Made by a program: the position numbers and the translations under genes. The notes beneath the pieces were generated by a model. The model ran no database searches and was not told where the DNA came from. It was given only the letters and a program-made list of their open reading frames with translations. DNA of 64,000 nucleotides from Escherichia phage MLF4, in the sequence record NC_055780.1; one strand, written 5' to 3'. Of this stretch, positions 33,675-38,262 are shown in pieces; the stretch's first letter is position 1; every line of letters begins with the position of its first letter.

Positions 33675-33698
33675 AAAGGCCTTCGGGCCTTTAATTTT
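33675..33698 (+). terminator. Intrinsic terminator
   Basis: AAAGGCC-TTCG-GGCCTTT followed by a T-rich tract. Confidence 0.65.
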
Positions 33699-33728
33699 AT
33701 AAATAGAATAAACACTAGAGAGGATAAC

Positions 33729-35822
33729 ATGGAACTTATTACAGAATTATTTGACGAAGATACTACTCTTCCGATTACAAACTTAAATCCAAAGAAGAAA
33801 ATACCACAAATTTTTTCAGTTCATGTTGATGATGCAATTGAACAACCAGGCTTTCGTTTATGTACCTATACATCTGGAGGTGATACTAATCGCGATTTAA
33901 AGATGGGCGATAAAATGATGCATATTGTTCCTTTTACATTAACTGCTAAAGGCTCAATTGCTAAATTAAAAGGTCTTGGTCCAAGCCCAATTAATTATAT
34001 CAATTCAGTTTTTACTGTTGCAATGCAAACGATGCGTCAATATAAAATTGATGCCTGCATGCTTCGTATTCTTAAGTCTAAAACTGCTGGCCAAGCTCGA
34101 CAAATTCAAGTTATTGCTGATAGACTTATCCGTAGTCGTTCAGGTGGCAGATACGTCCTTCTTAAGGAACTCTGGGATTACGATAAAAAGTATGCATATA
34201 TTCTTATACATCGCAAAAATGTATCATTAGAAGACATTCCAGGAGTTCCAGAAATTAGCACTGAACTCTTTACTAAAGTTGAATCGAAGGTCGGTGATGT
34301 TTATATCAATAAAGATACTGGAGCTCAAGTAACTAAAAATGAGGCAATTGCAGCATCTATTGCGCAAGAAAATGATAAACGTTCTGACCAAGCTGTAATC
34401 GTTAAAGTTAAAATTTCCCGTAGAGCAATTGCGCAAAGTCAATCGTTAGAGTCTTCTAGATTTGAAAGTGAATTATTCCAGAAGTATGAATCTACTGCAG
34501 CTAATTTCAATAAACCTGCTACCGCTCCTTTAATTCCCGAAGCAGAAGAAATGAAGCTTGGAATTAATTCATTAGCTTCTAAAACAAAGGCAGCAAAAAT
34601 TATTGCCGAAGGAACGGCAGATGAACTTCACTATGATTATAAATTCTTTCCAATGAGTCAAGTCGGTGAAGTTTCAGAAAAAATTAAAGAAGTAATTTTT
34701 AATGCAATTAAAAATGAACCAACTACTTCAATAAAATGTTTAGAGAAATACGCAGCAGCTGTAAATCAATTCTTTGAAGATTATAAAGATAAATGGCTTG
34801 CTAATCATAATAAAAATCGTAAAGGACAATCAGATGAAGTCTGGGAAGAAATAACTAAAAATTCCTGGAACGCAACAAAAACTAAATTCCTCAAACGAAT
34901 GATTTACAGTTTTTCTGGAATTGGTGCTGGTCCAATGATTGATATTACTATTGCACGCGATGGTTCTAAATATACTCCATCACAAAAGCGTGGCATTAGA
35001 GAATATTGCGGTTCAGGATATACTGACATCAATAATCTTCTTTTAGGTCGTTACAATCCAGAACGATACGATGTAATGAGTGAAAAAGAAATTGAATCTG
35101 CTATAAATAACTTAGATTCAGCTTTTGAAAATGGTGACCGTATACCAGAAGGCATTACAGTTTATCGTGCTCAAAGTATGACTGCTCCTATATATGAAGC
35201 GTTAGTTAAAAATAAAGTGTTCTACTTCAGAAATTTTGTATCTACTTCTTTAACTCCTATCATTTTTGGACGTTTTGGAATCACACATGCTGGTATTGGT
35301 CTTTTAGAACCAGAAGCTCGTAATGAATTGACAGTTGATAAAAATGAAGAAGGAATAACTATTAATCCAAACGAAATAAGAGCGTATAAAGAAAATCCTG
35401 AATACGTTAAAGTTCAAATAGGATGGGCAATTGATGGAGCTCATAAAGTTAATGTTGTATATCCAGGAAGTCTCGGAATAGCAACAGAAGCTGAAGTTAT
35501 TCTACCGCGCGGATTGATGGTCAAAGTTAATAAAATAACTGATGCTTCTAATAATGACGGAACAACATCTAATAATACAAAACTCATTCAAGCTGAAGTT
35601 ATGACCACAGAAGAGCTCACCGAATCGGTAATCTATGACGGAGACCATTTAATGGAAACCGGTGAAGTAGTTGCAATGACAGGTGATATTGAAATAGAAG
35701 ACAGAGTTGACTTTGCATCATTTGTTTCATCAAATATTAAACAGAAAGTAGAATCATCTCTTGGAATTATTGCGTCTTGCATAGATATTACAAACATGCC
35801 TTACAAGTTCGTTCAAGGATAA
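33729..35822 (+). CDS. alt: Alt-like ADP-ribosyltransferase, paralog 1 (probably capsid-packaged)
   Basis: 697 aa; C-terminal R-S-E ART signature (TVYRAQ, FVSTSL, EAEVILPRG); N-terminus MELITELFD shared with the adjacent paralog; position next to gene 30 as in T4. Confidence 0.8.
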   Translation: MELITELFDEDTTLPITNLNPKKKIPQIFSVHVDDAIEQPGFRLCTYTSGGDTNRDLKMGDKMMHIVPFTLTAKGSIAKLKGLGPSPINYINSVFTVAMQTMRQYKIDACMLRILKSKTAGQARQIQVIADRLIRSRSGGRYVLLKELWDYDKKYAYILIHRKNVSLEDIPGVPEISTELFTKVESKVGDVYINKDTGAQVTKNEAIAASIAQENDKRSDQAVIVKVKISRRAIAQSQSLESSRFESELFQKYESTAANFNKPATAPLIPEAEEMKLGINSLASKTKAAKIIAEGTADELHYDYKFFPMSQVGEVSEKIKEVIFNAIKNEPTTSIKCLEKYAAAVNQFFEDYKDKWLANHNKNRKGQSDEVWEEITKNSWNATKTKFLKRMIYSFSGIGAGPMIDITIARDGSKYTPSQKRGIREYCGSGYTDINNLLLGRYNPERYDVMSEKEIESAINNLDSAFENGDRIPEGITVYRAQSMTAPIYEALVKNKVFYFRNFVSTSLTPIIFGRFGITHAGIGLLEPEARNELTVDKNEEGITINPNEIRAYKENPEYVKVQIGWAIDGAHKVNVVYPGSLGIATEAEVILPRGLMVKVNKITDASNNDGTTSNNTKLIQAEVMTTEELTESVIYDGDHLMETGEVVAMTGDIEIEDRVDFASFVSSNIKQKVESSLGIIASCIDITNMPYKFVQG

Positions 35823-35825
35823 ATC

Positions 35826-37883
35826 ATGGAACTTATTACAGAATTATTTGACGGCGCTTCGGCGCCGGTTGTTAACTTAAATCCTAAGCATAAAATACCT
35901 CAAATTTTTGCTATTCAAGCAGGTGAAGAAAGCGTGCTTCCTGGATTTAGATTTTGTACATACACCTCTGGCGGTGATACGAATAAAAACGTTAAGCCAG
36001 GCGACAAAATGATGCATATCGTAATGATAGGTGTTAATGAGAAACTATCATTAGTTAAGCTTAAAAACTTGGGTGGAAATCCAATTGGCGTCATTAATGC
36101 TGTTTTTGATACTGCTCTTCAAACAATGAAGCAGTATAAAATTGATGCATGCCTATTCCGCGTACTAAAAAGTAAAACAAATGGCGCAGCTCGTCAAATG
36201 CAAGTTATTGCTGACCGTTTAGTACGTACTAAAGGAGCAGGTCGATATGTTCTTTTAAAGGAAATCTGGGATTATGATAAAAAGTACGCATATATTATGG
36301 TTTACCGTAAAAATGCCAATTTAGAAGACATTCCAGGTGTACCTCCTATTTCAACCGAGTTATTCACAAAAGTTGAATCAAAGGTTGGTGATGTTTATGT
36401 AGACGTTAAAACAGGTAATGCTGTTCCTAAAGCTGTTGCTGTTGCTGCTTCTATTGCTTTAGAAAATGATAAGCGCACGGATCAAGCTGTTATTCAGAAA
36501 ACTAAAATTAGTCGTCGATTAGCAGCACAAGCTCAATATTCTACTGTTGATGCTTCACTTCAGGGTGATAGCTTCGCTGCTAAGAAATATCAAGAGTTTG
36601 AATCTAAAGTTCCGGTATATAAAGCAGAAGGACCAATGAACTCTGGCGTTATTCAGATTGGTTCAAACTTTAGCAAAGGAGCTATCGGTGGTATGAGAAG
36701 TGCTTCTCGTTTTAAATCTAGTGATTATGAACTCGAAAGCTTCCGAAATCATATTGCATTGGCCCATGCACGTTTACGCGATCCATCTATCAAGCTGCAG
36801 AGCGATATAACATATCAAGGTTCTCAAGAATATTTAAAGAATAAAGAATTCTTTGATTATAAAACTGATAAAATTTTAAGCGATCTTGCTGACATTAATA
36901 TTTCTAATAGCTTTGATGTTATTAAGAAAATTGTCAATGATTTAGTTAAAGGTTCTAAAGCTACACCAGATGAAAAGACAGCTATTATTCAATTTGTCAT
37001 GAATGGAATTTATAAATTAATTGATGAATCTGCCGCTCAGGCATATGAATATGCAAGTACTGAAGTAACTCCAAAAGGATTAACTCAGGCTGAATCTGAT
37101 GTAATTGAAGATTATTGTGCAGATTCATATGTTGAAATGAACTCATTCCTTTTAGGTAAACCTGATTCTACCCGTGAAGAATATATGGAACGAGCTATTA
37201 AACATATTGAGACGCTGGATTCTGCATTTTCTAAAGGTTCAGTTCTTCCTCCAGGAACGACTCTTTATCGTGGGCAAGAAGTTACCTTTAAAACTTTGCG
37301 TCATAACATTGAAAATAAAATGTTCTATTTCAAGAACTTTGTATCTACTTCACTCAAGCCAAATATCTTCGGTGAATATGGTAAAAATTATATGGCCTTA
37401 GATGATTCCGGAGCAGTATTTTCTGGTGAAGGAGAAGGTTCAGTTGATGCTGAAGATTTAATGCATATGGGTAGTCATTCTACATATGCGAATGAAGACG
37501 CTGAAACTAGCGTGGGTATGGTAATTAAAGGAGCTGAACGAGTTAAAGTTATCGTTCCAGGTCATTTGTCAGGATTTCCATCAGAAGCTGAAGTTATTCT
37601 ACCACGTGGAATTTTACTGAAGATTAATAAAGTAAGTACTTACTTTATGAAAGAAACTGCTTATAACAAGTATCTAATCGAAGGTACAATCGTTCCTCCT
37701 TCTGAACAATTAGAAGAATCAGTATATGATGGCGACCATCTAATGGAAACTGGTGAAGTTCGTCCAATGGCTGGATTTAATCAATTCCTTGTAGAAGAAT
37801 CAAAAGAAGAGGAAAACGAAGTTTCTCAAATCTTAGCTTCTTTGGTTAACATTAACGGAATGTCTAAAAAGTTCAAAATGTAG
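35826..37883 (+). CDS. Alt-like ADP-ribosyltransferase, paralog 2
   Basis: 685 aa; same R-S-E signature (TLYRGQ, FVSTSL, EAEVILPRG); N-terminal ~200 aa highly similar to paralog 1, central region divergent. Confidence 0.8.
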   Translation: MELITELFDGASAPVVNLNPKHKIPQIFAIQAGEESVLPGFRFCTYTSGGDTNKNVKPGDKMMHIVMIGVNEKLSLVKLKNLGGNPIGVINAVFDTALQTMKQYKIDACLFRVLKSKTNGAARQMQVIADRLVRTKGAGRYVLLKEIWDYDKKYAYIMVYRKNANLEDIPGVPPISTELFTKVESKVGDVYVDVKTGNAVPKAVAVAASIALENDKRTDQAVIQKTKISRRLAAQAQYSTVDASLQGDSFAAKKYQEFESKVPVYKAEGPMNSGVIQIGSNFSKGAIGGMRSASRFKSSDYELESFRNHIALAHARLRDPSIKLQSDITYQGSQEYLKNKEFFDYKTDKILSDLADINISNSFDVIKKIVNDLVKGSKATPDEKTAIIQFVMNGIYKLIDESAAQAYEYASTEVTPKGLTQAESDVIEDYCADSYVEMNSFLLGKPDSTREEYMERAIKHIETLDSAFSKGSVLPPGTTLYRGQEVTFKTLRHNIENKMFYFKNFVSTSLKPNIFGEYGKNYMALDDSGAVFSGEGEGSVDAEDLMHMGSHSTYANEDAETSVGMVIKGAERVKVIVPGHLSGFPSEAEVILPRGILLKINKVSTYFMKETAYNKYLIEGTIVPPSEQLEESVYDGDHLMETGEVRPMAGFNQFLVEESKEEENEVSQILASLVNINGMSKKFKM

Positions 37884-37936
37884 TTTACAAGTCCCTCGTG
37901 TTGTGTTATAGTAGTCTTACTGACATAACATGAGGA
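37883..37936 (+). repeat. 54-nt early-promoter cassette, copy 2 (exact duplicate of 22078-22131)
   Basis: Identical 54-mer with GTTTACA ... TATAGT promoter boxes, directly upstream of the ORF at 37944. Confidence 0.85.
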
Positions 37937-37943
37937 ACACAAA

Positions 37944-38234
37944 ATGAAATCTTCTTTGCGCTTTTTAGGTCAAGAACTTGTAGTTGAAGGCGTTATTCCT
38001 GCTGATAATGCTTTTAATGAAGCAGTTTACGATGAATTTATTAAAATTTTCGGAACCGATAAAAAGTTTGGAATTTTTCCTTCTGAAAATTTTTCAAAGC
38101 CAGAACAGACTGAAAGTATTTTTCAGGGTGTAGTAACAGGTAAATTTGAGTCAGAAGCTCCGGTAAAAATTGAGGTTTATATTGAAGAAACCTCTGTTGC
38201 TTCAGTTGCTGCTTTTATTTCATTCCGTAAATAA
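37944..38234 (+). CDS. Hypothetical protein
   Basis: 96 aa ORF downstream of the repeated promoter cassette. Confidence 0.5.
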   Translation: MKSSLRFLGQELVVEGVIPADNAFNEAVYDEFIKIFGTDKKFGIFPSENFSKPEQTESIFQGVVTGKFESEAPVKIEVYIEETSVASVAAFISFRK

Positions 38235-38240
38235 AAACAT

Positions 38241-38258
38241 GGGGACCTTTCGGTCCCC
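38241..38258. terminator. Bidirectional terminator hairpin at the convergent junction (37944 ORF vs gene 54)
   Basis: GGGGACC-TTTC-GGTCCCC flanked by A/T runs on both sides. Confidence 0.6.
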
Positions 38259-38262
38259 ATTG

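Follow-up and report, generated by a model that had tools for sequence, protein, structure and literature searches.

The alt locus of Escherichia phage MLF4 (NC_055780.1), located at positions 33729-37883 of the analyzed 64,000-nucleotide stretch of DNA (hereafter referred to as the window), comprises two adjacent genes, designated altA and altB ('Alt2'). Sequence comparisons support the interpretation that both encode paralogous arginine-type ADP-ribosyltransferases of the Alt family, alike in their N-terminal module and divergent in their cores. In its common complete form, the alt region probably consists of two ancient paralogous Alt-family mono-ADP-ribosyltransferase genes served by one late promoter, the products of which would both be packaged and injected and would act on distinct targets. 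The tandem pair as such is already known and, as a sequence finding, ordinary, since it has been deposited, annotated and named many times and since both the T4 record and earlier publications refer to the duplication.

Paralogy of altA and altB

A first-pass annotation of the window had described two adjacent open reading frames (ORFs) of 697 and 685 amino acids (aa), both beginning with MELITELFD, and the ORF listing places them at exactly these coordinates on the + strand (Table 1). The encoded proteins are 42% identical over 719 alignment columns (BLASTP, E = 4e-162). A common N-terminus followed by a divergent center had likewise been noted, and pairwise alignment confirmed it: in 40-residue windows, identity amounts to 55-82% over residues 1-235 (approximately 68% for these 235 residues as a whole) versus 15-28% in the centers (residues ~240-460). 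Corresponding values are 35-52% near the catalytic motifs, 5-10% in the loop following the S-T-S motif and 22-45% in the C-terminal tail.

In a hidden Markov model search against ADP-ribosyltransferase families, as advised by the annotation, both proteins exceeded the 23.4-bit cut-off of PF03496 (ADPrib_exo_Tox) by a wide margin, with 129.7 bits for altA and 72.8 bits for altB. Furthermore, both were assigned to PHROG 802, 'Alt-like RNA polymerase ADP-ribosyltransferase' (2e-272 for altA and 6e-257 for altB), in each case over profile positions 2-674 of 674. NCBIfam and PADLOC returned no matches.

In most 40-codon windows, altA and altB approach saturation at synonymous sites (pS 0.34-0.77), and the duplication is therefore regarded as old. 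Recent gene conversion as the origin of the shared N-terminus was ruled out because synonymous differences are near saturation in this region as well (pS 0.46-0.74); the similarity there must consequently have been maintained by selection. Moreover, the pair is real and does not represent an assembly artefact, since the 4.9-kilobase (kb) region recurs, at a coverage of at least 80%, in 339 independent phage records.

Catalytic Domain and Predicted Fold

Both proteins had been described as ending with an arginine-specific ADP-ribosyltransferase signature. The motifs are indeed present in altA and altB, but they are not terminal, as approximately 95-110 residues follow, including a conserved tail. 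Conservation was assessed in alignments of 20 diverse homologues, none of which departs from the catalytic Arg, S-T-S and E-x-E. Absence of the catalytic glutamate(s) from one copy had been considered as a finding that would remove the novelty of the pair; neither copy has lost any catalytic residue.

AlphaFold2 models, with mean predicted local distance difference test (pLDDT) values of 74.5 for altB and 70.5 for altA, feature an alpha/beta N-terminal domain (residues ~12-225), an all-helical center (~250-470), the catalytic domain and a disordered C-terminal tail. Fold searches with these models confidently identified an ADP-ribosyltransferase fold for the catalytic domain, which answers the structure prediction suggested earlier for the C-terminal domains of both proteins. 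A solved structure of an Alt-family protein was not found, and sequence matches in the PDB comprised CdtA and iota toxin only, for altA, and none for altB. The catalytic fold and the Arg, S-T-S and E-x-E motifs are common to altA, altB and the C3-like and binary toxins (Vis, C3bot, CDTa, iota Ia, VIP2). However, the latter are toxins secreted by bacteria, possess different delivery domains and share only 14-24% sequence identity with the window proteins.

These features bear on the question of whether altB might serve the prohead core in a non-catalytic capacity, as a structural protein or pseudo-enzyme, given that Alt is reported to be a head core protein besides being an enzyme (PMC11404850). 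Invariance of the catalytic Arg, S-T-S and both glutamates, the confident ADP-ribosyltransferase fold and a ratio of nonsynonymous to synonymous substitution rates (dN/dS) of 0.03 in the catalytic domain render this explanation extremely improbable.

Purifying Selection, Predicted Processing and Predicted Packaging

Based on comparisons of the window, T2, UTI-E2, ZCEC15 and BECP11, overall dN/dS values are in the range of 0.02-0.06 for altB and 0.04-0.10 for altA. Within altB, values of 0.025, 0.069, 0.030 and 0.017 were obtained for the N-terminal domain, the center, the catalytic domain and the C-terminal tail, respectively. Decay of one copy into a pseudogene was ruled out by dN/dS values of 0.02-0.10 and by the intact motifs. 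As judged from these sequence data, altB looks functional, i.e., it appears to be a working gene. Its C-terminal tail is predicted to be disordered, yet it represents the most constrained part of altB; the 20 homologues show no variation at YDGD, E641, G643-E644 or the terminal K-F.

T4 Alt is a head core protein, present in approximately 40 copies and injected with the DNA (PMC9026906; PMC2988021). Its cleavage by the prohead protease gp21 was mapped to ITE-6 and LTE-619 by mass spectrometry and results in a product of 68.2 kDa (PMC5694885), and the six N-terminal residues are removed (X15811 annotation; PMC5694885). The mass computed for residues 7-619 of T4 Alt, 68.2 kDa, equals the published value. 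Motifs for gp21 are present at both ends of altA and altB (ITE-6 as well as L-x-E approximately 55-65 residues from the C-terminus), and the predicted cleavage would release mature proteins of ~70.1 kDa (altA) and ~69.1 kDa (altB). At the C-terminal site, the P1 Glu is invariant and P3 is L, I or M in 20 of the 20 aligned homologues. Packaging of both enzymes, as envisaged in the first-pass annotation, is plausible from sequence, given that both keep the ITE-6 propeptide and the C-terminal (L/I/M)-x-E site. Assignment of the N-terminal domain to PF26846 rests on records for the 98%-identical protein P0001 and for single chimeric genes with an altA-type N-terminal part.

Regarding expression, the altB ATG lies 3 nucleotides (nt) past the altA stop codon and is equipped with an AAGGA ribosome-binding sequence, and no second promoter-like site was found between altA and altB. 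Late co-transcription of both genes is likely, since the T4 late-promoter consensus TATAAATA precedes altA and since altB starts directly behind it. Purifying selection, the position behind a late promoter and the retention of both cleavage motifs suggest that altB is probably packaged and injected, and that it would act on a different target.

Alternatively, altB could be an active enzyme that is not packaged and acts late inside the producing cell. Packaging is known for T4 Alt only, and T4 ModA and ModB, belonging to the same R-S-E Alt/VIP2 group of phage ADP-ribosyltransferases as altA and altB (PMC5512222), act without packaging (PMC2988021) and, unlike Alt, are not injected from the head (PMC5512222). 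However, ModA and ModB are early products (PMC2988021), whereas altB is located behind the late-promoter consensus of altA. Moreover, altB keeps the N-terminal propeptide, the Alt-specific N-terminal domain, the C-terminal L-x-E site and the conserved tail (dN/dS 0.017), so that an unpackaged altB is considered very unlikely.

Distribution and Previous Annotation of the Gene Pair

The window belongs to a T4-like phage, a Tequatrovirus. Over the 4.9-kb region, it shares 98.6% identity with Escherichia phage BECP11 (Tequatrovirus sf23), whose record lists the genes as alt_1 and alt_2. In total, approximately 400 of roughly 500 related GenBank phages carry the pair, T2 included, which encodes the same combination of 697 and 685 aa. 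The altB center is 95-99% conserved at the protein level in approximately 400 records, among them RB3, RB27, RB51 (named alt.-2 there), RB68 and Shfl2. In the BASEL phages Bas38 and Bas41, the genes are annotated as 'ADP-ribosyltransferase Alt' and 'Alt2', and a further existing annotation of the pair is 'Alt-like ... (x2)'. Alt2 of Bas38 and Bas41, alt_2 of BECP11 and the second Alt-like gene of T2, RB68, RB51 and ime09 represent the same gene as altB (95-99% protein identity); they are found in the same tandem arrangement, without substantive difference from the window. As early as 2006, Nolan et al. (PMC1524935) had pointed out paralogous duplications of alt, T4 alt.-1/alt.-2 among them.

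The novelty originally attributed to the pair was therefore not upheld. Approximately 400 close relatives carry it intact and already annotated, the function of the second copy being assigned by homology only.

Phage fDHCT2 (L006 4913-11173) harbors three tandem alt genes at the same locus. The first gene is altA-like (66%), the third is altB-like (48%) and the middle one represents a third type. Positional orthology in this array supports an old altA/altB duplication.

The N-terminal domain was detected at 1817 places in 1200 Straboviridae records. Its use as a general carrier of varied cargo was considered and rejected, as only 69 clusters were found among 1.84 billion representative proteins, nearly all of them 600-712 aa in length; PF03496 was present in seven of nine sampled clusters. 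Two rare proteins with an Alt N-terminal domain, P0184 (541 aa) and P0183 (485 aa), lack a Pfam ADP-ribosyltransferase match. In the C-terminal region of P0184, no Arg, S-T-S or E-x-E motifs were seen, which makes it one possible exception to the fixed cargo, and in P0183 Y-K replaces Y-R and E-x-E is altered. Judged by their sequences, the cargo of both proteins may be different or degenerate.

Relation to T4: Deletion of altB

The first-pass annotation ascribed a single alt gene at this locus to T4. T4 indeed possesses one intact alt gene, but remains of a second one persist as alt.-1 and alt.-2, which occupy the same position downstream of alt as altB. Alt.-1 (NP_049810) is 95% identical to altB residues 1-56, and Alt.-2 (NP_049809) is 98% identical to altB residues 62-116. 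In contrast to the intact altB, these are fragments with an interrupted reading frame. Comparison of T4 and window DNA revealed a 1,699-base pair (bp) frame-shifting deletion between two copies of the 9-bp repeat CTAAAAAGT. In the T4 GenBank record, alt.-1/alt.-2 are explained as a duplicated initial portion of alt; a deletion between repeats means that they are the remains of a full-length gene and not a partial duplication.

A 201-nt probe spanning the T4 junction was found intact in 91 records, including the natural isolates slur14 and pSe_SNUABM_01, and split in two in approximately 400 records. Since the same junction occurs in 91 phage records, the deletion is natural and does not represent a laboratory artefact. 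T4 thus displays a minority deletion state comprising approximately 18% of its relatives.

Metagenomic contigs L010 (4001-6055) and L011 (4001-6061) contain a single gene in which an altA N-terminus is fused to an altB body. Both crossovers, at ~nt 540 in L010 and ~nt 150 in L011, are sharply defined and fall within the best-conserved stretches. Such single-gene chimeras are consistent with unequal recombination between the tandem N-termini, with some room left for chimeric assembly. Together, the T4-type deletion and the chimeras indicate that loss of either enzyme body is tolerated, which agrees with the non-essential nature of Alt.

Relation to T4: Exchanged Center of altA

T4 Alt (gpAlt, NP_049811) resembles altA in its locus (between gene 30/alt.1 and alt.-3/54), late promoter, hairpin, ITE-6 and LTE contexts and catalytic motifs. 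Residues 1-245 of altA are approximately 100% identical to T4 Alt and the C-terminal tail approximately 90%, whereas the center (aa ~245-420) is only 12-33% identical and the catalytic domain 56-78%. For altB, overall identity to T4 Alt is 41%, with the same four-part layout and the same PHROG family. At the DNA level, codons 1-240 and 641-699 of altA and T4 alt are near-identical even at synonymous sites (pS 0.04-0.22), whereas saturation is approached across codons 241-600 (pS 0.43-0.82), and positions 34536-34964 gave no match to T4 DNA. Because synonymous sites are near saturation in this part and the flanks are near-identical, the center and catalytic part of altA (34446-35500, aa ~240-590) represent a replacement by recombination relative to T4 alt.

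Two versions of the altA center, approximately 32% identical to each other, circulate in Tequatroviruses. The window/T2/RB3/RB68 type was found in 309 records (at least 90% identity) and the T4 type in 174. The altA version is independent of altB, as UTI-E2 combines a T4-type altA with an intact altB. Owing to the exchanged center, the biochemistry of T4 Alt is not automatically transferable to altA of the window. Modification of RNA polymerase alpha Arg265 and of MazF as well as Mokosh evasion were described for T4 Alt itself. Concerning T4 numbering, a catalytically dead mutant was published as Alt E577A (PMC11404850), whereas the RefSeq E-x-E is E574-M-E576 (L001 5455-7503), corresponding to a one-residue offset.

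Proposed Function of the Gene Pair

Both products share a four-part layout: a 6-residue propeptide plus a conserved alpha/beta N-terminal domain of ~230 residues, a helical center of ~230 residues differing between the paralogues, a C3/VIP2-type catalytic domain and a conserved but disordered tail starting at L-x-E. By analogy with T4 Alt, both proteins would be made late and incorporated in the prohead core, where gp21 would trim both termini. Subsequently, both would be injected with the DNA and would ADP-ribosylate arginines of host proteins ahead of any phage gene expression. The divergent center and the hypervariable loop behind S-T-S may provide each enzyme with its own targets. In summary, the analysis establishes gene structure, homology, intact motifs, the predicted fold, purifying selection, occurrence among phages and the origin of the T4 fragments, and we infer late co-transcription, packaging, cleavage, injection and enzymatic activity as well as a separate target of altB.

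According to a 2025 preprint, evasion of Mokosh type I requires T4 Alt; it restores growth on a Mokosh type I strain, whereas Bas37 Alt does not (bioRxiv 10.1101/2025.11.20.689424). This result shows that sequence differences can change function. It is also relevant for the possibility that altA and altB overlap in function, which is considered unlikely. Redundancy would accord with the family, layout and catalytic motifs common to both proteins, with the non-essential nature of T4 Alt itself (PMC9026906) and with the natural loss of either enzyme body, as expected under functional overlap. However, differences much smaller than those between altA and altB, with their strongly diverged centers and post-S-T-S loops, already alter the phenotype on the Mokosh strain. 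Furthermore, the duplication is old, yet both copies are under strong purifying selection in approximately 80% of relatives, which is unusual for redundant genes in a compact genome.

Several observations weigh against two packaged enzymes with distinct targets. altB is dispensable in nature, considering the deletion in 91 records including T4 and the single altA/altB chimera in some contigs. Localization of target specificity in the center derives from the position of divergence, and the fold searches listed no match spanning the helical center and only weak matches for the N-terminal domain. The AlphaFold2 models are of moderate confidence, having been computed from a shallow alignment of 20 sequences, and the promoter assignment is a consensus match only. 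Moreover, no virion proteomics and no experimental paper on Alt2 or 'Alt-like' proteins were located in the literature; a publication on injected anti-restriction proteins (PMC12373910) makes no mention of Alt.

Expression Signals and Neighboring Genes

The pair is flanked by homologues of T4 gene 30 (DNA ligase), alt.1, alt.-3, 54 and 48, which corresponds to the genomic position of the T4 Alt family. Homologues of alt.1 and alt.-3 border the alt genes in every locus examined, irrespective of whether one, two or three copies are present. Further features of the region are summarized in Table 1.

A second exact copy of TATAAATA is located inside altA (35102-35109, +) and may represent an internal late promoter or a chance occurrence, as 19 matches were counted in the window versus approximately nine expected. 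The alt.-3 homologue is possibly expressed at another time than altA and altB, since an early-promoter-like site precedes it. A GC-rich hairpin with a 9-bp stem (38239-38260) between the converging alt.-3 homologue and gene 54 is terminator-like on both strands.

Table 1. Features of the alt region in the window.
Feature	Coordinates	Strand	Remarks
altA	33729..35822	+	ORF, 697 aa; T4 alt orthologue with T2-type central and catalytic version; start MELITELFD
altA N-terminal propeptide MELITE	33729..33746	+	predicted gp21 cleavage after Glu6; identical to T4 Alt
altA conserved N-terminal domain, aa 7-235	33747..34433	+	PF26846 Tevenvirinae_ADPRT type; pLDDT ~70-86, alpha/beta; dN/dS 0.024
altA variable helical center, aa ~240-470	34446..35138	+	two versions among Tequatroviruses
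altA catalytic Arg480 codon	35166..35168	+	motif Y479-R480; invariant column in homologue alignment; aligns with Arg of CdtA Y-R motif
altA S505-T506-S507	35241..35249	+	homologue alignment
altA E587-A-E589 (E-x-E)	35487..35495	+	aligns with E-Y-E of CdtA
altA L630-T-E632, predicted C-terminal gp21 site	35616..35624	+	context EELTE/SVIYDGDH (slash, cleavage) as in T4 (LTE-619 equivalent)
altA predicted C-terminal propeptide, 65 aa	35625..35819	+	low pLDDT; ~90% identical to T4
altB ('Alt2')	35826..37883	+	ORF, 685 aa; second ADP-ribosyltransferase gene, intact, of which T4 retains the fragments alt.-1 and alt.-2; start MELITELFD
altB N-terminal propeptide MELITE	35826..35843	+	first 28 nt identical to altA; Glu6 invariant in homologue alignment
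altB conserved N-terminal domain, aa 7-235	35844..36530	+	PF26846 recorded for 98%-identical P0001; dN/dS 0.025
altB helical center, aa 236-470, paralogue-specific	36531..37235	+	pLDDT 80-92, all helical; dN/dS 0.069
altB catalytic Arg482 codon	37269..37271	+	motif Y481-R482; invariant in homologue alignment
altB S507-T508-S509	37344..37352	+	homologue alignment
altB E587-A-E589	37584..37592	+	homologue alignment
altB L629-E-E631, predicted C-terminal gp21 site	37710..37718	+	context QLEE/SVYDGDH (slash, cleavage); P1 Glu invariant
altB predicted C-terminal propeptide, 54 aa	37719..37880	+	pLDDT below 50; dN/dS 0.017
9-bp repeat CTAAAAAGT, first copy	36165..36173	+	left end of segment missing in T4
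9-bp repeat CTAAAAAGT, second copy	37864..37872	+	right end of 1,699-bp segment missing in T4
alt.1 homologue, 61 aa	33487..33672	+	77% identical to T4 Alt.1; PF24647 Phage_blade 6.8e-28; upstream locus marker
GC-rich hairpin AAAGGCC-TTCG-GGCCTTT	33675..33692	+	between alt.1 and altA; same sequence upstream of T4 alt
T4 late-promoter consensus TATAAATA	33698..33705	+	exact match, 24 nt upstream of altA ATG; conserved in T4
Early-promoter-like site TTTACA, 17 nt, TATAGT, with TG	37884..37912	+	directly past altB stop, upstream of alt.-3 homologue; consensus match only
alt.-3 homologue, 96 aa, DUF5498	37944..38234	+	97% identical to T4 Alt.-3; PF17602 3e-62; downstream neighbor

Implications for the Alt Family

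The Alt family shares features with T4 IPI-III, which are head-packaged, gp21-cleaved and injected and carry diverse cargo behind a conserved targeting peptide (PMC3012670; PMC9026906). In Alt proteins, by contrast, the conserved N-terminal module comprises approximately 235 residues and both termini are processed (PMC5694885). A broader generalization, judged to have slightly less than an even chance of being correct, is that the majority of T-even phages deliver two or more different arginine ADP-ribosyltransferases by injection. The alt locus would then represent a small set of one to three injected effector genes, each with an exchangeable part (center and catalytic domain) framed by conserved parts at the N- and C-termini that serve packaging and processing, and Alt2 would be directed at a host target of its own, possibly a defence system. 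If true, six decades of research on T4 could not have revealed the target of Alt2, as T4 has lost alt2 through a natural deletion.

Alt is the textbook enzyme injected by a phage for host takeover, and knowledge about it originates from T4, a member of the minority of approximately 18% that is devoid of the second gene. In light of the Mokosh results, it is reasonable to look to Alt2 and the two versions of the Alt center for new host targets or counter-defence functions. The window itself does not provide a new discovery; the role of Alt2 represents a worthwhile experimental question, which is easily overlooked since the model phage has lost the gene.

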